A stretch of 64,000 bases of DNA from an uncultured Ignavibacteriales bacterium (lineage in GTDB: Bacteria > Bacteroidota > Ignavibacteria > UBA10030 > SZUA-254), in NCBI GenBank assembly GCA_963714795.1, contig CAVQPS010000009.1, positions 550,709 through 614,708 on the forward strand, read 5' to 3'. Under the pieces are notes generated by a model, which searched no databases, had not been told where the DNA came from, and saw nothing but the letters and a program-made list of their open reading frames with translations. A program made the position numbers and the translations under genes. Below, one piece after another: positions 2,395 through 34,701 of the stretch; position 1 is the first letter of the stretch; the number at the start of each line of letters is the position of its first letter.

Positions 2395-3209
2395 CGATCG
2401 TTTCGGTTATGATGGTAAAAGTCGATGGCATGGATATTCATTTTGAACGAAAAGGGTCAGGAAAAACAATCCTTCTGGTTCACGGTCTCGGAAGTCCGCT
2501 CGTCTGGGATCGGCTGATCGATCCGTTAGCGCAATTCTTTGACGTTATTGCCGTCGACCTGCCGGGATTCGGCAGTTCGAGCAACCCGCCGGCGCCGTTT
2601 TCCACTCAGCAATATGCCGACGTTCTTTTTCATCTCATTGACACACTTCAGCTTCAGCGAACGTCGATCCTCGGGGTTTCGTACGGCGGACAGATTGCGC
2701 TGACCTTCGCATTCGATCATCAGAACAGAATCGACAAACTTATTTTAGTTGCGAGCTCGGGATTGGGACCGAGAAATTCCTTTCTTGCTTCTTCACCTGT
2801 TTGGATGCTCGTTTCATTCATCGTCAAAAATGTGATATTCAAAAGCACGATGATGATTCGATTGTTTAGCCGGATGTCGTTTTTTGACTGCACGAAACGT
2901 CCGGACGATCTTGCCGAACGATTCCATCGTGCCGTTAACGGAAAAGGAAGAAAAGAATCGTGGCTTCAATGCGCGCGGAATGCTTTGCGAACAGAGAACG
3001 ACTTCTCGAAACGGCTTGCAACGCTTTCAGTTCCGACATTAATTGTTTGGGGAAAGGAAGACCGCATTGTGCCGGTGCGGTGGGCGTACGGGTTTCAAAA
3101 GGTACTTCAGAACTCATCACTCAAGATTTTAGAGCGGTGCGGGCATTCATTGCCGTTGGAGAAAGCGGCGGAGTTGTGTGAGGAAGCGAAGGCGTTCTTT
3201 CAAAGATAA
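2379..3209 (+). CDS. alpha/beta-fold hydrolase
   Basis: Has 'ILLVHGLGS' after a beta strand and a nucleophile elbow 'GVSYGG' (GxSxG), at about 270 aa. Confidence 0.7.
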   Translation: MDEKIAIVSVMMVKVDGMDIHFERKGSGKTILLVHGLGSPLVWDRLIDPLAQFFDVIAVDLPGFGSSSNPPAPFSTQQYADVLFHLIDTLQLQRTSILGVSYGGQIALTFAFDHQNRIDKLILVASSGLGPRNSFLASSPVWMLVSFIVKNVIFKSTMMIRLFSRMSFFDCTKRPDDLAERFHRAVNGKGRKESWLQCARNALRTENDFSKRLATLSVPTLIVWGKEDRIVPVRWAYGFQKVLQNSSLKILERCGHSLPLEKAAELCEEAKAFFQR

Positions 3210-3241: not shown

Positions 3242-3449
3242 CCTCTCCTAAATGGAGAGGGAATTTATAATCGCCAAGATATAGAGTATTCATATCAAAA
3301 AGTCTTTATGGTTTTTGTTCTCCTTCGTGGTGGTCTTTTATTTGAGACCCCATCTGTAATCTTCCCCTAAGAGGGGAAGATGTTGTGGCTTCCACAAAAG
3401 AATATGATTACACGATCATTGCAAGCATCCTCTCCTCTAAGGAGAGGAT
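3242..3449. repeat. three related short hairpin repeats (CCTCTCC/GGAGAGG-type stems)
   Basis: The sequence shows three hairpins within about 210 bp. H1 3242..3260 is cctctcc-taaat-ggagagg. H2 3360..3380 is tcttcccc-taaga-ggggaaga. H3 3427..3449 is atcctctcc-tctaa-ggagaggat. H3 overlaps the last codons of the DUF559 ORF. Confidence 0.5.
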
Positions 3450-3836
3450 TATAGGTGAGGTCTCGTTTTGCAATCTTTGTCGAATCGTTTCATATATCGA
3501 ATCAAGAAACCCTTGTGTATTTTTCAGCGCATCGATATCCGTAAACCTCACGACCATAATTCCATTCGATTCAAGCAATGCATCTCGTTTCTGATCTCTT
3601 TTCATTCCGCTCTCTGTGCGGTGCTGGCTACCGTCCAGTTCGATACACAACAGGGCATTCTGACAAAAGAAGTCAAGTATATACGGGCCAAATGGAACCT
3701 GCCTTCGGATTTTGACTCCCATCTGATTGTTTCGTAAGTGTCTCCAAATTTTTTTCTCGGCATCAGTCATTTCTCGCCGCAATCGGCGGGCAAGAGAAAT
3801 TAACTTTGAACTATAATTCTCAAAATGTCGATGCAT
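3408..3836 (-). CDS. DUF559 (Vsr-like) endonuclease-domain protein
   Basis: The N-terminus 'LARRLRREMTDAEKKIWRHLRNNQ...FRRQVPFGPYILDFFC' is typical of DUF559 proteins. The C-terminal tail is encoded by hairpin repeat H3, so the real stop may lie upstream of 3408. Confidence 0.7.
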   Translation of the reverse strand: MHRHFENYSSKLISLARRLRREMTDAEKKIWRHLRNNQMGVKIRRQVPFGPYILDFFCQNALLCIELDGSQHRTESGMKRDQKRDALLESNGIMVVRFTDIDALKNTQGFLDSIYETIRQRLQNETSPIILSLEERMLAMIV

Positions 3837-13631: not shown

Positions 13632-14731
13632 TGCGATTTCTCTATTCCAAATGGACGCCGGGATCAATGACCGACGCGCAACGGCTCGAAGAGCTGATGT
13701 CGCTCTTCAGTTACCTGCTGCTGCAGACCAGCGGCGACGTTGAAGAAGCGATCGAGTGGCTTCGGCAACTTGCAAAGGAATATGGCATCTTCGATGAAAC
13801 GCTTACCGTCGAAGACCTAATCCAGAAATTGAAAGAGATGGGGATCATCGAGGAAGTCGATGATGTGAAAACCCTGACGACAAAAGGCGTTCAGCGTATC
13901 CGCCAGGACGCGCTGAAAGAAATCTTCACGTCGCTCAGGAAAGGCGGCGCCGGCACGCACGAAACGCCGTACACCGGAAAAGGAGTCGACCGGCTCAGTG
14001 AAACGAAAAAATGGGCGATCGGCGACGCGGCGAACAACATCGATCTCACCTCGACGCTGACGAACGCGTTCAAGCGCGGCGGCATCGAGGACTTCACATT
14101 GAAAGAAGAAGACCTCGAAGTCTACGAAACCGAACACACGACCTCCTGCGCCACGATCCTCATGCTCGATATCAGTCACAGCATGGTGCTCTACGGCGAA
14201 GACCGTATCACGCCCGCGAAACAGGTTGCTCTTGCGCTTGCCGAGCTGATCTCGCAGAAATATCCGAAGGATTACCTTGCTTTGGTCGTCTTCGGAGACG
14301 ATGCGAAACTCGTGAGTCTTGCCGAACTGCCGTTCCTCAATGTCGGACCGTTTCATACCAATACGCGTGCCGGACTGCAGATGGCGCGCAATCTCCTGCG
14401 CCGGAAACGATCTGCTAACAAGCAAATTTTCATGGTGACCGACGGCAAACCGTCGGCGATGTTCGACGACAGCGGGCGTTTGTATAAAAATTCGTTCGGT
14501 CTCGACCCGCGCATCGTGAACAAAACGCTCGACGAAGCGGTTGCCTGCCGCCGTGAGAAAATTACGATCAGCACGTTCATGGTGGCGCGCGATCAGTATC
14601 TTATTAATTTTGTTGAAGAGCTTACCAAAGCCAACCAGGGGAGAGCGTACTACTCACAATTGCAAAATCTGGGAGAGTTTATTTTCGTCGATTACATACG
14701 CAACCGCAGAAAAAAATTCGGGACGATGTAA
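13631..14731 (+). CDS. VWA-domain protein (partner of the preceding ATPase)
   Basis: The MIDAS motif 'LDISHSM' (DxSxS) and a downstream 'VTDGKPS' are present. It is translationally coupled to the ATPase. Confidence 0.75.
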   Translation: MRFLYSKWTPGSMTDAQRLEELMSLFSYLLLQTSGDVEEAIEWLRQLAKEYGIFDETLTVEDLIQKLKEMGIIEEVDDVKTLTTKGVQRIRQDALKEIFTSLRKGGAGTHETPYTGKGVDRLSETKKWAIGDAANNIDLTSTLTNAFKRGGIEDFTLKEEDLEVYETEHTTSCATILMLDISHSMVLYGEDRITPAKQVALALAELISQKYPKDYLALVVFGDDAKLVSLAELPFLNVGPFHTNTRAGLQMARNLLRRKRSANKQIFMVTDGKPSAMFDDSGRLYKNSFGLDPRIVNKTLDEAVACRREKITISTFMVARDQYLINFVEELTKANQGRAYYSQLQNLGEFIFVDYIRNRRKKFGTM

Positions 14732-14786
14732 CAAGTGGTTTGATAGTTTGATAGTTGGATGGTTCCTTGAAATCACCTATCTCGAA

Positions 14787-14904
14787 AATTCCCCGTCTTG
14801 CTGAATTGCTTTTGTTCAGCATCTATTCCAAGCTTGCTTAGTTCAGATTCCGAATAGAATTCCCAAGGGGATCACTTTGTGACATTTCGGAAAGACGGGG
14901 TATT
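14787..14904 (+). repeat. small element with terminal inverted repeats, copy 1 (related to 33689..33795)
   Basis: The termini 'aattccccgtctt' and 'aagacggggtatt' are inverted repeats. The core 'tgttcagcatctat..gattccgaatagaat..atttcggaaagacggggtatt' is shared with copy 2. Confidence 0.5.
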
Positions 14905-14979
14905 ATAAATTGAGGCACTACCCTCGTTTGAATTTCATACAAAATTTGTGCATTTTAGCATAAAGATGCTAACGAATTT

Positions 14980-15732
14980 ATGATTCTCGTCATTCCGGCA
15001 ATCGATATCAAAGGAGGAAAATGCGTCCAGATGGTGCGGGGCGTCGCGGGATTCGTGTACTCCGACGATCCGATCGAAATGGCAAAACTCTGGCGCAAAG
15101 AAAATGCGAAAGCTCTGCACGTGACCGATATCGACGGCGCGATGGAGGGGCATCTCGTGAATTTCGGCATCATTGAAAAAATGGTGCAGACGGTTTCCAT
15201 CCCGATCGTCCTCGCCGGCGGCTTCCGCACATTCGACGAAGTGAAACGGGCATTCGACCTCGGCATTTACCGCGTCGTCATCGAAACGATGCTCATCGAA
15301 ACGCCGGATTTGGCAAAACGTGTGCTCGATACATTCGGCGCCACGCGGGTTGTTGCTGGCATCAGCGCGCAGAACCGCCAGGTTCGCACGCACGGCTGGA
15401 AAGAATTTTCCGGCATGACGGCAATTTCTTTTGCGCTGAATATTGCCGCTCTCGGATTCAAGCGAATTCTTTTCACCGACATCAGCGTCGACGGCACGAT
15501 GCTCGGTCCCAATTTTGCCATGATGAAACAAATTGCCGAAGCGGCACATCTCCGCATCACCTCATCGGGCGGCGTCGCCGGGCTTGAGGATTTATTGAAA
15601 CTGCAGGAGATGGAACCGCTCGGCATCGATTCCGCCATCATCGGCAGAGCATTGTACGAAAATAAATTTGCCTGCCAGGGCATCTGGCGCATGTGCGAAG
15701 CGGGCAACTATCCCTATACGGCACGACTATGA
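14980..15732 (+). CDS. hisA: HisA-family (beta/alpha)8 phosphoribosyl isomerase
   Basis: The N-terminus 'MILVIPAIDIKGGKCVQMVRG' and the C-terminus 'AIIGRALYENKF' are HisA-like, at 250 aa. No other his genes are in the window. Confidence 0.7.
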   Translation: MILVIPAIDIKGGKCVQMVRGVAGFVYSDDPIEMAKLWRKENAKALHVTDIDGAMEGHLVNFGIIEKMVQTVSIPIVLAGGFRTFDEVKRAFDLGIYRVVIETMLIETPDLAKRVLDTFGATRVVAGISAQNRQVRTHGWKEFSGMTAISFALNIAALGFKRILFTDISVDGTMLGPNFAMMKQIAEAAHLRITSSGGVAGLEDLLKLQEMEPLGIDSAIIGRALYENKFACQGIWRMCEAGNYPYTARL

Positions 15733-17404: not shown

Positions 17405-18294
17405 AACGAACGATTCTTTTTAGAGGAACCGGAACCGCGCTCGTCACCCCGTTTACTTCAACGGGAGCAGTTGACGAAAGTGCGTTGCGGAAGCTTGTCG
17501 ATTTTCAAATTAAAAATCGCGTCGAAGCGATTCTGCCGACCGGCACAACCGGCGAGAGTGTGACGCTGACCGATGATGAACAGGTTCGTGTTGTCGAGAT
17601 CGTCCTTGATCAGGCACGCGGGCGCGTAAAAATTATCGCCGGAGCCGGAAGCAACGCGACCGCCAAAGCCATTGCAATTTCCAAGCGAATGGTCAGTGCC
17701 GGAGTGGACGGAATTCTTTCCGTTGCGCCGTACTATAATAAGCCGACGCAGGAAGGTTTCTACCGCCATTATGAAGCGATCGCTTCTGCCGTGCCTGCAC
17801 CGATTGTGATGTATAATGTTCCCGGGAGAACGGCGAGTAATATGGATGCATCAACAACGCTCAGGATTGCCGAAAAAATTCCGACCGTTGCCGGCATTAA
17901 AGAAGCATCGGGAAATTTCGGACAGGTGATGGATATTCTTCGTTACCGCCCGAAAGGATTTGGTGTCTGGTCTGGCGACGATGCAATCACGTTGCCGATG
18001 GTGGCGCTCGGGGCGGACGGCGTCGTGTCTGTCGTTTCGAATGAAGTTCCGAAACAATTTTCGGACATGGTGCGGTTGTGTCTCAAAGGAAAATTTACCG
18101 AAGCGACGGCGCTTCACAATACGTTGCTTGACCTTATGAATGTCAATTTTGTAGAATCGAATCCGATTCCGGTGAAAGCCGCGCTTGCGATGATGGGAAT
18201 GGTGAAAGAATATTACCGCCTGCCGCTTGTGCCGTTGAGCCAGCATCATCGTCCGAAATTGAAAGCAATCCTCAAAGATTTGCGACTGATATAA
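17401..18294 (+). CDS. dapA: 4-hydroxy-tetrahydrodipicolinate synthase
   Basis: The 'ALVTPF...[10 protein letters not shown]' region and the Schiff-base lysine region 'GIKEASGN' are present. The start is taken at the ATG at 17401, which overlaps the dapB stop. Confidence 0.85.
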
Positions 18295-26774: not shown

Positions 26775-27939
26775 ATGAAACGCACTATGTACCTGTTCAT
26801 CGTGGCAACGATGGCTGTCTGTTCAGTCACGTTCGGTCAAACTGTCAAAAAACCGGATAAGCCGGATCATTATTTTCTGACCAAGCTCGGCAATGATACG
26901 CTTGCTGTCGAAGAATTTTCGATCAACAGTCATGAAATCCAGGGAACGAGCATTGCGCGCGCGCCTCGGCTGACCGTCCGAAAATACAAAGCAACGTTCG
27001 GCGATAACGGCATGTTGGAGCATTTTCACGTGACGTACCAGCGGTTCAGCGGACAAGTTTCTTTCGGAGCGGGATTATACGTACACGAACGACAGCGTTT
27101 ATGTCGTGAACAAACAGGATACGATGACCACGAAATATTCTGTGGCAACTTCCGAGCATCCCTTTCCGCTTTTTTATGATATTTTTGCCGGATGGCAGGC
27201 AACAGTGCAGAAAGCTTTGAACTCAAAAGGTAAAAAAGAATTTTCAATTCTTGCCGGCAGACAAGTTTACCATTATGATGTTCAGGAAACTGCGCCGGGC
27301 AAATTTGATCTGGTGATGCCGATCGGCGAGTTCAGTCCGTTGCACGTTGTGGTCGGCAAAGGAAACGAAATTGAATCGTTTGACATGACGGCAACGACGG
27401 ATAAAGTTGTCGTTGAAAAAACTGTTGAACTTGATGTGAAGGAGGCGGTGATACGCTATGCCGCTGCCGAAAAAGCAGGCAAACAGCTCGGTGTACTTTC
27501 GCCGGGAGACAGTGTCCGAGCAACGATTAACGGAGCCAAAATTTTCATTAGTTATAGCAGACCATCGATGCGGGGACGCACGATATTCGGACAGGTTGTT
27601 CCGTGGGACATCGTCTGGCGCACCGGCGCAAATGCAGCAACGCAACTTGTATCCGATAAAGATCTGACGTTCGGAACGACGGTTGTTCCGGCCGGAACAT
27701 ATACGTTGTTCTCGCTTCCGTCACAGTCCGGCTGGAAGCTGATCATCAACAGCCAGCACGGGCAGTGGGGAACGGATTACGATCAGAAAAAAGATTTTGC
27801 GCGGCTTCCGCTCACCGTGAAAAAGATCGATGATGCAGTCGAGCAGTTCACATTTGAAATAACTTCGGAAGGTTCAGGCGGAACGATTCATATGAAATGG
27901 GAAAACACGGACGCATCGATTCCGTTTTCGGTGAAATAA
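26775..27939 (+). CDS. DUF2911-like secreted protein, apparent frameshift at about 27035..27105 (could instead be two overlapping genes)
   Basis: The N-terminal signal-peptide ORF (frame 1, from MKRTMYLFIVATMAV) runs into the ORF 27106..27939, which carries 'GANAATQLVSDKDLTFGTTVVPAGTYTLFS'. The second ORF lacks its own signal peptide. Confidence 0.45.
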
Positions 27940-28070
27940 ATTAGTTTGATGGTTCCGTGCCGCCAAGACGGCACGGAACATCTGTTTGATGCTATCGGTG
28001 GTATTAATACGATCGGGCATGAAGGATATAACTTGCGCATTTCAGATTTCTCTACTATCCCTTTTCCTTC

Positions 28071-30681: not shown

Positions 30682-30766
30682 GGATTTTTGGATGGAAGGC
30701 GACAGGGAAAAAATTTATTTAGAATGGGAAAACAGGGATGCATCGATTCCGTTTATAGTGAAATAG
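30680..30766 (+). other. relic 3' fragment of a DUF2911 paralog
   Basis: Translates to 'MDFWMEGDREKIYLEWENRDASIPFIVK*', which matches the C-terminus of the 27939-ending gene ('EGSGGTIHMKWENTDASIPFSVK*'). At the DNA level about 42 nt match with 5 mismatches. Confidence 0.5.
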
Positions 30767-31267
30767 GTGACTTTGTCCTGAGTCAATGGCTTCCGTCTGA
30801 ATTGATAGGGCATAGGTTAGTTATTTAAAACATTCTTATGAAAGTGAGCCTTGTTCTTGAAGCACATGGCAAGTCGAACGACGACGGTTTTGAATTTTCT
30901 CTCTGTAAGCTTGGATTTCATCTGGTTGATGAGTTTCGCAGCTACAACGATACTTGTTTTATCCCCAGGTATGCTGTGGTCAAAGTTCAAGTACCAATTA
31001 GAATTAGAATCCTCTTTTGTGTCAGTGAGCAAAACCTTTGTGTAGTGGCAACGAAACTTCGCTTTCTTACGGTCCCATGCATCTATGAGTGCTTTCTCGC
31101 GTGCTGCCGTGTCGATTGAGCCTTTCTAGCTCGCTCGACCAGTTTCTGGCATCGCTCGCAACGTTTACAATGAAGGCGCTTTCGTGGTAATTTTTTCTTA
31201 CAAGTTGAGCATGTTTTAGGGGTGGTCTCCATGATATATGTCTCTAATTATATAGATTGCAAAAGAT

Positions 31268-32582: not shown

Positions 32583-33593
32583 CTATCTTTTCCCCATCAA
32601 AAACTCTTCGCACAATTTTACATCTTCTTCACTGCCGAGAATGACCGGCGTGTGCTGGTGAAGCGACGTCGGCTGAACCTGCAAAATACTTTTCGAGCCG
32701 TCGCTCGAGCGCCCGCCCGCCTGCTCGATGATGTATGCCATCGGGTTGCACTCGTACATGAGGCGGAGTTTCCCGTCGGGATTTTTCTTGTCGCCGGGGT
32801 ATGCAAAAATTCCGCCGTACAACAGCGTGCGATGCGCGTCGCCCACCATCGTCCCGATGTATCGCATGGAATATGGCCGCCCGGTCGCTTTGTCTTCCTG
32901 TTTCAAATAGGTGATGTAGTTTTGCATTCCTTTATCCCAATTATGGAAGTTGCCCTCGTTCATGCTGTAGATTTTTCCTTTTTTCGGAATGCGAATGTTT
33001 TCATGCGAAAGTAAAAATTCCCCGACACTCGGATCGAGCGTGAAACCGTGTACGCCGTGTCCGGTCGAGTATACGAAGATCGTGCTCGTGCCGTAAATGA
33101 TGTAGCCCGCGGCTACCTGTTTGTATCCGGGCTGTAAACAATCCTGAAGCGTGCCGTTTCCTTCTTCAGAGACGCGACGGAAGATTGCAAAGATCGAACC
33201 GATGGTGATGTTGGCGTCGATGTTGGAAGAACCGTCGAGCGGATCGTAGAGCAGAACATATTTTCCCGATTTATATTCGCTGGGGATATGCAGAATGTCT
33301 TCATTTTCTTCCGAAGCCATGACGCAGACATGGCCGCCGTGATCCATTGCTTTGTAAATCGTTTCGTCGGCGAAGACATCTAATTTTTTTACAATATCGC
33401 CGCTGACGTTCATACGGTCGGTTGTGCCGAGGATGTTGACGAGTCCCGCTTTACTCACTTCGCGCCAGACAAGTTTTGCGGCGAGCGCAAGATCGTGAAG
33501 CAAGCCGGAAAATTCGCCGGTCGCGCCGGGATAAAATTGTTCCTGCTCGTTGATGAACCGCTCCAGCGTCATAAATTTTTTTGTTGCCGGCAT
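32583..33593 (-). CDS. fbp: fructose-1,6-bisphosphatase class I
   Basis: 336 aa with the 'DPLDGSSNID' metal-binding motif and 'GKLRLMYECNPMAYI'. Confidence 0.9.
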   Translation of the reverse strand: MPATKKFMTLERFINEQEQFYPGATGEFSGLLHDLALAAKLVWREVSKAGLVNILGTTDRMNVSGDIVKKLDVFADETIYKAMDHGGHVCVMASEENEDILHIPSEYKSGKYVLLYDPLDGSSNIDANITIGSIFAIFRRVSEEGNGTLQDCLQPGYKQVAAGYIIYGTSTIFVYSTGHGVHGFTLDPSVGEFLLSHENIRIPKKGKIYSMNEGNFHNWDKGMQNYITYLKQEDKATGRPYSMRYIGTMVGDAHRTLLYGGIFAYPGDKKNPDGKLRLMYECNPMAYIIEQAGGRSSDGSKSILQVQPTSLHQHTPVILGSEEDVKLCEEFLMGKR

Positions 33594-33688
33594 TCAGAAA
33601 TTCCCTTCGGGCTGGTGATGAGGATAGTATGAATTCACAAACATAGGAAAAACTTTTTTGAGTTGCAAGAAACAGTATCTCAATTTAT

Positions 33689-33795
33689 AATTCCGCGTCT
33701 TACTGTCCCGCTCATTGAGCGGGATTGTTCAGCATCTATACCGAGCATCCTTCGTTCGGATTCCGAATAGAATCATTTCGGAAAGACGGGGTATT
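33689..33795 (+). repeat. small element with terminal inverted repeats, copy 2
   Basis: Termini 'aattccgcgtctt' and 'aagacggggtatt'. It shares its core with copy 1 and has an extra internal perfect hairpin 'tcccgctc-attg-agcggga'. Confidence 0.5.
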
Positions 33796-33953
33796 GTTGG
33801 GGGATGATTTCAGGAAACTGAGACGTCACCCAGCAGGATGATTTCTTGCAGAAGTGGAGAAATGTCCGTATATTTTGATCACATCATTGAAAATTTCGCA
33901 ATACCATCACGAAATACTTGCCACAAATATAATCACGACAGAGAAATTACCGT

Positions 33954-34701
33954 ATGAAAATCGTTGTGTGTGTGAATCACGTTCCCGATACGGAAGTCAA
34001 AGTAAAAATCGGACCGGACGGAAAAGTAATCGATAAAACCGGCGTCAATTTTATCCTCAACCCATACGATGAGTTTGCCATCGAAGCGGCTTTGAAGCTG
34101 AAAGAGCAGCATGGCGGCGAAACGATCGCTTTGTCGTTGGGCGGCGATGTTCATAAAGAAACATTGCGCAAAGCGCTGGCAATGGGTGTCGAGAAAGCCG
34201 TGCTGTTGAAAGACGAAAGCGTCCGCGATTCTTTTTCGATTGCAAAAGCTCTTGCCGAACAATTAAAAACGATGTCACCCGATTGCGTTCTGTTCGGTAA
34301 GCAATCGATCGATTATTATGATGAACAAATTCCCGGGCTTGTTGCGGAATGGTTGGGAATGCCTTCTATTTCCGTCGTTGTGAAATTGGAAGTGCAGAAC
34401 GGCAAGCTTATTTGCGAGCGGGAAATCGAAGGTGGACACGAAGTTGTCGAATCGACCCTGCCGGCAGTCATCTCTGCACAAAAAGGGATTGAACGAGCCG
34501 CGCTACCCGTCGTTGAAAGGAATTATGGGTGCAAAAACAAAACCGATCGAAGAGCGTCAGCCGGTTGCGCAAGCGCCGGTCGTCGAAGTGATCGGGATGC
34601 AAAAGCCGCCGGCAAAACAGCCGGGCAAGATTGTCGGTACGGATGCTTCTGCCGTTCCTGAACTCGTCCGGTTGCTCCACGAAGAAGCCAAAGTTATTTA
34701 A
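33954..34701 (+). CDS. etfB: electron transfer flavoprotein beta subunit, apparent 1-nt indel in an A5 run at 34480..34484
   Basis: 'MKIVVCVNHVPD...' N-terminus. The conserved 'LNEPRYPSLKGIMGAKTKPIEE' segment lies in the +1 frame (ORF 34432..34701). Confidence 0.85.

Follow-up and report, generated by a model that had tools for sequence, protein, structure and literature searches.

Enterobacterial ERIC (IRU) elements are imperfect intergenic palindromes of ~120 bp, which occur in larger variants through insertions at fixed internal sites and which fold in read-through transcripts; to our knowledge, neither target-site duplications nor recent mobility have been demonstrated for them. Prokaryotic MITEs have been defined as small intergenic elements with terminal inverted repeats (TIRs), direct repeats in young copies and stable stem-loops (PMC10969869), and their direct repeats fade with age (PMC10969869). 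MITEAba12 of Acinetobacter, for example, measures 113 bp and has 16-bp TIRs and 9-bp duplications (PMC6382973). Correia elements (CREE/NEMIS) of Neisseria have 26-bp repeats, a TA (or CA) duplication and hundreds of copies (PMC2649163, PMC10969869). Among insertion sequences, GGnnnTG is a feature of the ends of IS1, which makes 8-9-bp duplications, and of IS6/IS26, which make 8-bp duplications (PMC6807381).

Two repeats of 110-120 bp lie in the 64-kb stretch of DNA analysed here (the window), for which the first-pass annotation had offered three readings: a MITE-like element, a REP-type repeat or a small structured RNA family. Our analysis indicates that the repeats are very probably the inner parts of a non-coding miniature transposon, and that they represent a new MITE family in uncultured Ignavibacteria. 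The MITE-like reading is supported by a filled and empty site pair with a 9-bp duplication, by presence and absence among close relatives and by the occurrence of both orientations at one site. Every testable defining feature of a MITE was found, namely small size and non-coding sequence, TIRs, target duplication and dispersed polymorphic copies.

Two copies in the window

The two same-orientation look-alike copies were located where they had first been placed, at 14787-14904 (copy 1) and 33689-33795 (copy 2), both on the + strand and both intergenic, with an identity of ~88-91%. The shared core that had been proposed corresponds to a 49-nt block with 88% identity between the copies, and a 22-mer, CATTTCGGAAAGACGGGGTATT, is identical in both and absent elsewhere in the window (chance expectation 0). 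As also described previously, each copy has its own internal insertion, TCCCAAGGGGATCACTTTGTGA in copy 1 (14861-14882) and the hairpin TCCCGCTCATTGAGCGGGA in copy 2 (33706-33724). The shared 5' termini, AATTCC(C/G)CGTCTT (AATTCCCCGTCTT / AATTCCGCGTCTT), and the common 3' terminus, AAGACGGGGTATT, had been taken as mutual reverse complements. They are indeed complementary at 12 of 13 positions, but constitute an inner inverted repeat, extendable to 22 nt at 82% in copy 1, and not the ends of the transposon, which lie 2-30 nt outside them. Likewise, the first-pass annotation bounded the inner core correctly, but conserved sequence reaches ~14750-14922 and 33671-33830. The reported core palindrome and its 'gattc..gaatc' repeat are exact in copy 2 (ttcggattccgaa) but not in copy 1 (ttcagattccgaa, with the end gaatt).

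Copy 1 lies between a VWA-domain gene (stop at 14731) and hisA (start at 14980), both on the + strand, and copy 2 in the divergent intergenic region between fbp (fructose-1,6-bisphosphatase; 32583-33593, - strand) and etfB (33954-34661, + strand). Homologues of the flanking proteins carry the names of Ignavibacteria, Ignavibacteriales or Bacteroidota MAG proteins, and the window itself has matches in metagenome assemblies. The features of both are as follows, where L numbers denote sequences of relatives, and w1 and w2 here and below denote window copies 1 and 2.

14750-14922, + strand: full-length copy 1, delimited by flank comparisons and consisting of degenerate 5' outer end, 5' spacer, core and 3' outer TIR; its 5' boundary is uncertain by ~15 nt
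14750-14786, + strand: degenerate 5' outer end of copy 1, GATAGTTGGATGGTT, tentatively assigned as such, and 5' spacer, CCTTGAAATCACCTATCTCGA, which mirrors the 3' spacer of copy 2
14787-14904, + strand: core of copy 1, quasi-palindromic, with the 13-nt inner inverted repeat AATTCCCCGTCTT / AAGACGGGGTATT at its ends
14861-14882, + strand: private 22-nt insertion of copy 1, TCCCAAGGGGATCACTTTGTGA, elsewhere in the family only in the 99.7%-identical strain L001
14907-14922, + strand: 3' outer TIR of copy 1, AAATTGAGGCACTACC (reverse complement GGTAGTGCCTCAATTT), 15/15 against the reverse complement of the L006 5' outer end
33662-33670, no strand: GTTGCAAGA, the presumed 9-bp target-site duplication to the left of the site 2 insert, postulated on the model of L006, whose 9-bp duplication is perfect
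33671-33830, + strand: full-length copy 2, consisting of 5' outer TIR, core, 3' spacer and 3' outer TIR, within a 166-nt insert between flanks shared with L023
33671-33686, + strand: 5' outer TIR of copy 2, AACAGTATCTCAATTT
33689-33795, + strand: core of copy 2
33706-33724, + strand: 19-nt perfect hairpin module, TCCCGCTCATTGAGCGGGA, standing where copy 1 has AATTGCTT; also in L007 and L023
33796-33814, + strand: 3' spacer of copy 2, GTTGGGGGATGATTTCAGG, 17/19 against the reverse complement of the L005 5' flank and 10/10 against L007
33815-33830, + strand: 3' outer TIR of copy 2, AAACTGAGACGTCACC
~33830-33838: right target-site duplication at site 2, degenerate, CCAGCAGGA, a 5/9 match to the left copy

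No further copies or solo ends were found in the window by nhmmer (--max, filters off), a motif search allowing 3 mismatches or repeat finders, and in the same motif search the 3' outer TIR of copy 1 was the sole match of its motif. Elsewhere in the window, an 82-nt direct repeat with 73% identity (27867-27948 and 30694-30775) spans the ends and stop regions of two neighbouring genes and likely represents paralogous C-termini.

Element architecture

The complete element measures ~150-173 bp (150 nt at L006 and ~160-173 nt in the window). Stacking of the copies yields outer TIRs of 14-16 bp with the consensus 5'-GGTAGTGCCTCAATTT ... AAATTGAGGCACTACC-3'; those of L006 are TAGTGCCTCAATTT / AAATTGGGGCACTA (14 nt, 93% complementary), and the motif flanks the other copies too, in the correct orientation. 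Within this frame lies a quasi-palindromic core of 96-118 bp with the 13-nt inner inverted repeat at its edges, separated from the outer repeat on one side only by a spacer of ~6-22 nt, which is 5' in w1, L005, L006, L007 and L024 and 3' in w2 and L023. Mirror pairs of spacers include TGAAATCA / TGATTTCA and, in L007, CCTGAAATCA, which is the reverse complement of TGATTTCAGG at 10/10 positions. Over its full length, the element can be aligned to its reverse complement (E 1e-7 to 1e-12), and no ORF of at least 40 aa was found within it. No duplication was seen flanking the core, which leaves a nested insertion of the core into the outer element unsupported.

Copies in relatives and the empty insertion site

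When JGI metagenome contigs were scanned for an exact 19-mer, a single metagenome yielded three real copies (L005, L006 and L007), and later loci added those of L023 and L024/L025. Five further loci in related contigs carry the family, with the copies at L005, L006 and L024/L025 occupying unrelated loci. Five independent loci are known, three of them in both filled and empty states, and the density in the sampled sequence is ~one copy per 30 kb by an unbiased estimate. The exact 19-mer scan of 185,579 species-representative genomes gave three matches, all due to chance, in coding genes from Calothrix and a Bacillota MAG; the lineage is evidently absent from this genome set. Viral contigs gave 0 matches to the element and plasmids no match.

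The movement of the element can be read most directly at L006, where a copy occupies the intergenic region of two divergent genes, one FKBP-type and one encoding a Gate domain. At the orthologous position, L024/L025 align with this region end to end except for a single 159-nt gap. The filled site reads GGGGTTT-CCAAATTAC-(150 nt, GTAGTGCCTCAATTT...AAATTGGGGCACTATC)-CCAAATTAC-ACTAAG and the empty site GGGGTTT-CCAAATTAC-ACCGAG, with a single CCAAATTAC. The gap thus equals the 150-nt element plus a perfect 9-bp duplication, the hallmark of transposition with a 9-bp staggered cut. A target-site duplication, which the first-pass annotation had suggested looking for, is therefore present in perfect form at L006 and as a single copy at the orthologous empty site. 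L006 is the one site with a perfect duplication; the two copies match at 7/9 positions in L023 (GTTGCAAGA / CTTTCAAGA), at ~6/9 in L005 and in L024, and at 5/9 in window copy 2. Such decay at the older copies agrees with the published fading of MITE direct repeats (PMC10969869).

Other small palindromic repeats were observed in the same sequences. A second, unrelated family is represented at 3344-3463 of the window and at 2910-3021 (- strand) of L006, with 79% identity over 121 nt, inverted termini GAGACCCCAWCTRTAATC / GATTAYAGGTGAGGTCTC and two internal GC hairpins, cttcccctaagaggggaag and cctctcctctaaggagagg; this is probably another MITE family. A third palindromic element, with termini GTACTGTCCTAAT / ATTAGGACAGTAC and internal hairpins GGTCGGGTCTTTCGACCCGACC and GATGTCAGGTCGAAAGACCTGACATC, lies at ~17782-17889 (- strand) of L024, where it directly adjoins the 5' end of the MITE copy, so that small repeats are clustered side by side.

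Insertion site between the VWA gene and hisA

At site 1, the element is present in the window, in L001 (99.7% identical) and in L007/L010/L012 (8% nucleotide divergence), and absent from L026/L027 (VWA protein 99% identical) and L013/L014 (84-86%). L026/L027 have a different 88-nt palindromic sequence at this site together with a larger island. Homology between copy 1 and L007, a 91%-identical relative, stops at 14922-14926, directly after CACTACC, and in the L007 group a 1.77-kb insertion encoding an Mrr-type nuclease and a CoA-binding protein begins right after the outer repeat. Given the differing presence and absence at the insertion sites, three related genomes have three distinct insertion profiles.

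Since w1 and L007 share the degenerate 5' end, both derive from one insertion. L007 has the hairpin module of the w2 type and lacks the 22-nt insert of w1. Over alignable core columns, w1 is 95.5% identical to L006 and 93.1% identical to L007, and the core divergence of 7% between w1 and L007 compares with 20-22% at fourfold-degenerate sites. This low divergence could reflect gene conversion between copies, template switching inside the palindrome or some degree of constraint.

The intergenic spot downstream of the VWA gene acquires palindromic elements repeatedly: L026 (4567-4660) and L027 (4581-4675) have CACCCT...CTTCCGAAGG..CCTTCGGCAG..AGGGTG here, and L013 (12720-12880) has a string of hairpins (ccccacgatttatcgtgggg and others). 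A variable gene island is also found between the VWA gene and hisA. The window has nothing at the corresponding position (14922-14926), and the island spans 4676-6444 in L007, 11369-12936 in L010 and 4764-8344 in L026. It encodes an Mrr-type restriction nuclease and a CoA-binding protein in L007/L010/L012, and Mrr, an M78 peptidase, DUF4411 and a CoA-binding protein in L026/L027; in L007 its start coincides exactly with the MITE's outer end. Immediately before copy 1, the window has a tandem duplication, GTTTGATA-GTTTGATA (14742-14757), for which L007 has a single GTTTGATA, and just beyond copy 1, GTTTGAAT occurs again at 14926-14933 and may be a remnant of a target duplication.

Insertion site between fbp and etfB and changes of orientation

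Site 2 is empty in L015-L022 (FBPase 90-91% identical), which have 21-22 nt where the window has the 166-nt insert; in six contigs with a 90-91% identical FBPase the fbp/etfB intergenic region measures 205 nt. In L023, whose FBPase is 97% identical and whose fourfold-degenerate sites diverge by 17%, exactly the flanks of the window enclose a 167-nt insert. This insert is the reverse complement of that in the window at ~87% identity, including the outer repeats to within at most 2 nt of the ends. Opposite orientations are thus observed only between lineages, in copies that are ~13% apart.

A single insertion that was later flipped in place appears somewhat more probable than two independent insertions into a hot spot. 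The flip is favoured because w2 and L023 alone combine the spacer-3' architecture with the hairpin module, and it has a precedent in the inversion of Correia MITEs (PMC10969869). Two insertions are favoured by a similarity between w2 and L023 (86%) that is no higher than between random family members, by differences between their right-hand duplications at 4 of 9 positions, and by the reconstructed target TTGCAAGA-TGATT-TCTTGCA, itself a small palindrome. The empty target of site 2, reconstructed as GTTGCAAGA-TGATT-TCTTGCAG (33662-33670 with 33837-33851), is a palindrome with a 7-bp stem and could be an insertion hot spot. An inversion through the flanking native repeat TGCAAGA/TCTTGCA was rejected, since the intervening GATGATT has the same place and orientation in both strains.

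The difference in spacer side implies that, in the w2/L023 type, the core lies the other way round within the outer frame. This could have come about by core inversion via the inner repeats, or if alternative arms were lost from an ancestral perfect palindrome measuring ~190 nt. The two sides of the inner repeat differ at position 4 (T/C on the left, A on the right), and this difference moves together with the core, which places any crossover at or outside the inner-repeat edge.

With the core found in both orientations relative to spacer and frame, and the site 2 element in both orientations between the same flanks, the element might have two layers, an outer MITE frame and, enclosed by the 13-nt repeat AAT(T/C)CCCCGTCTT / AAGACGGGGTATT, an inner cassette of 100 nt that flips independently, with the whole element flipping in place as well. 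We consider this unlikely; if true, the transposon would deliver a portable, orientation-switchable promoter/terminator module beside housekeeping genes.

An invertible promoter switch (inverton), in which a site-specific recombinase, acting between inverted repeats, flips the element or its core and thereby changes the gene that is driven (fbp versus etfB; hisA), would likewise produce opposite orientations at one site in two related strains and a core that lies opposite relative to the frame in copies with 5' and 3' spacers. Inversion of promoter-carrying Correia MITEs has been reported (PMC10969869). Sigma-70-like hexamers are present at the junctions, TTGCAA-17-TATAAT (33663-33691), formed from target and element, and GTGACA-16-TATTAT (14879-14906; 10/12), made by the copy 1 insert with hisA 75 nt downstream, and a same-strand gene begins 75-158 nt downstream at four of the five independent loci. 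However, these promoter matches are to a bare consensus that may not be the host's, as the promoter type of Ignavibacteria may differ, and the flanking hisA, fbp and etfB are housekeeping genes. The flipped segment takes in the outer repeats themselves, and the two flipped versions differ by ~13%, suggesting a fixed lineage difference rather than fast switching. No recombinase gene adjoining any copy was found in the gene tables. Moreover, orthologous sites in close relatives are without the element and its insertion duplicates the target, and we know of no inverton that inserts with target duplication. An inverton is therefore very unlikely. Read as a miniature transposon, which we prefer, the element is unusual only in its in-place flip and its reversible core orientation, and the orientation changes pose a modestly interesting question.

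Folding and covariation

The structured RNA family of the first-pass annotation would be an sRNA gene or a cis-regulatory leader, with the stems as its product and the transposon look incidental. Consistent with such a family, + strand cores fold far below shuffled controls (z -3.8 and -5.5). Among seven distinct cores, 93.6% of cells pair in a rod model and 94.5% in a multi-branch model, compared to 38-50% with slid partners. In addition, several C-to-U changes opposite G in the closing stem keep + strand pairing, and the positional orthologues w1 and L007 are 93% alike compared to ~79% at neutral sites. However, the minus strand folds as well as the + strand (-37.6/-38.5 and -41.9/-38.3 kcal/mol), and on the + strand A-C mismatches occur about as often as G-U (5 versus ~7 columns), a comparison uninformative on the RNA strand. 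Covariation scores were 0.119 against a shuffled mean of 0.130 (389 of 500 shuffles as high) and 0.077 against 0.088, and compensatory pairs and pair types were at or below shuffled controls in both structure models, in each case with the low power of 7 sequences. Rfam searches at gathering thresholds gave 0 matches in the whole window, and a permissive search of two copy-bearing loci returned on the element only microRNA-hairpin noise (E 0.6-0.7), with tRNAs elsewhere. Orientation relative to neighbouring genes is also inconsistent, with the L005 copy directed towards the 3' end of a convergent gene and the site 2 element inverted in L023, and the element is missing at the same loci in relatives of 84-99% protein identity. 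With no Rfam match, no covariation above controls and no strand-specific folding, an RNA family is extremely improbable. Strand-symmetric folding together with covariation not above controls argues for a DNA palindrome by descent rather than a demonstrated RNA gene, and the pairing pattern is that of a decaying DNA palindrome.

Mechanism of movement

We propose that a transposase encoded elsewhere, predicted to be of the DDE type, would bind the outer repeats and move the element in trans. An IS1-like enzyme is probably responsible, given the length of the duplication (9 bp), the GGnnnTG termini and the 14 of 18 positions shared with an IS1 end. The terminus consensus GGTAGTG fits GGnnnTG, and the 18-nt consensus matches the E. 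coli IS1A end GGTAATGACTCCAACTTAT at 14 of 18 positions, with 9 of 2000 shuffles as good. As IS6 ends share the GGnnnTG motif, we regard this link to IS1 as a suggestive lead and not a classification. No autonomous partner or transposase with matching ends was found in the window or in ~350 kb of related loci; we thus infer mobilisation in trans, and the IS1 link rests on the 18-nt end similarity and the length of the duplication.

The internal modules (19-nt hairpin and 22-nt insert) and the side of the spacer may change by recombination or template switching, either between the arms of the palindrome or between copies. Any read-through transcript would contain a hairpin of -38 to -42 kcal/mol. 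Effects on neighbouring genes, whether by hairpins in read-through transcripts or by hybrid junction promoters, would be by-products and not the reason for the element.

A REP/REPIN-type repeat spread by RAYT (IS200/IS605-like TnpA) on single-stranded hairpins, corresponding to the REP-type option of the first-pass annotation, has next to no probability: the element is palindromic, intergenic and hairpin-forming, and other small palindromic repeat families are clustered with it in the same genomes, but its clean 9-bp duplication and 14-16-bp TIRs are DDE-transposase hallmarks, HUH/RAYT-type (IS200/IS605) movement makes no target duplication, a RAYT gene is absent from all gene tables examined, and 150+ bp is far above the REP unit (short palindromic units of 20-40 nt). 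An integron attC site, as a palindrome beside a variable gene island, was rejected on the basis of ends that are not RYYYAAC/GTTRRRY and of the target duplication.

Significance

The literature searched contained no paper combining MITE with Ignavibacteria, and the family is seemingly the first of its kind to be described in that group. As a type of element it is well known and in principle ordinary; the family itself is new, is useful for annotation and shares no sequence with MITEAba12 or Correia. The repeat should be labelled as a repeat or mobile element and not as an sRNA or riboswitch candidate, and its true extent reaches ~50 nt beyond what the two window copies alone suggest. The family further shows that transposition has occurred recently in an uncultured lineage of groundwater or soil, gives insertion markers that resolve strains, and marks intergenic hot spots with turnover of palindromic repeat families and small defence-type gene islands. 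If the orientation changes are frequent, the element would generate regulatory variation much as Correia elements do, in a phylum with no such source known.

Comparison with known systems

The new family resembles MITEs such as MITEAba12 in being non-coding and 100-200 bp long, with imperfect TIRs of ~16 bp and 9-bp duplications that are perfect only when young, and also in its intergenic location, its presence or absence among close strains and its sigma-70-like hexamers near the ends (PMC6382973, PMC10969869). It has no sequence similarity to MITEAba12, is not AT-rich, and differs in that its interior itself forms a long imperfect palindrome whose modules can be swapped. The ends of MITEAba12 are shared with ISAba12, whereas no partner IS was found for the new family. 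Correia elements are likewise composed of inverted repeats around a conserved core, with length variants due to indels and strain-specific insertions (PMC2649163, PMC10969869). They too lie mostly just upstream of genes, with reported inversion and possible junction promoters (PMC2649163, PMC10969869). Unlike Correia, the new family has a 9-bp duplication, and both its sequence and its phylum are unrelated. The outer-end consensus, GGTAGTGCCTCAATTTAC, fits GGnnnTG as do the ends of IS1, matching the IS1A end at 14/18, and the 9-bp duplication is also IS1-like, but the element is without a transposase gene and measures ~150 bp compared to ~770 bp for IS1. Finally, as an intergenic imperfect palindrome the element recalls ERIC/IRU, from which it differs in its target duplication and recent mobility.
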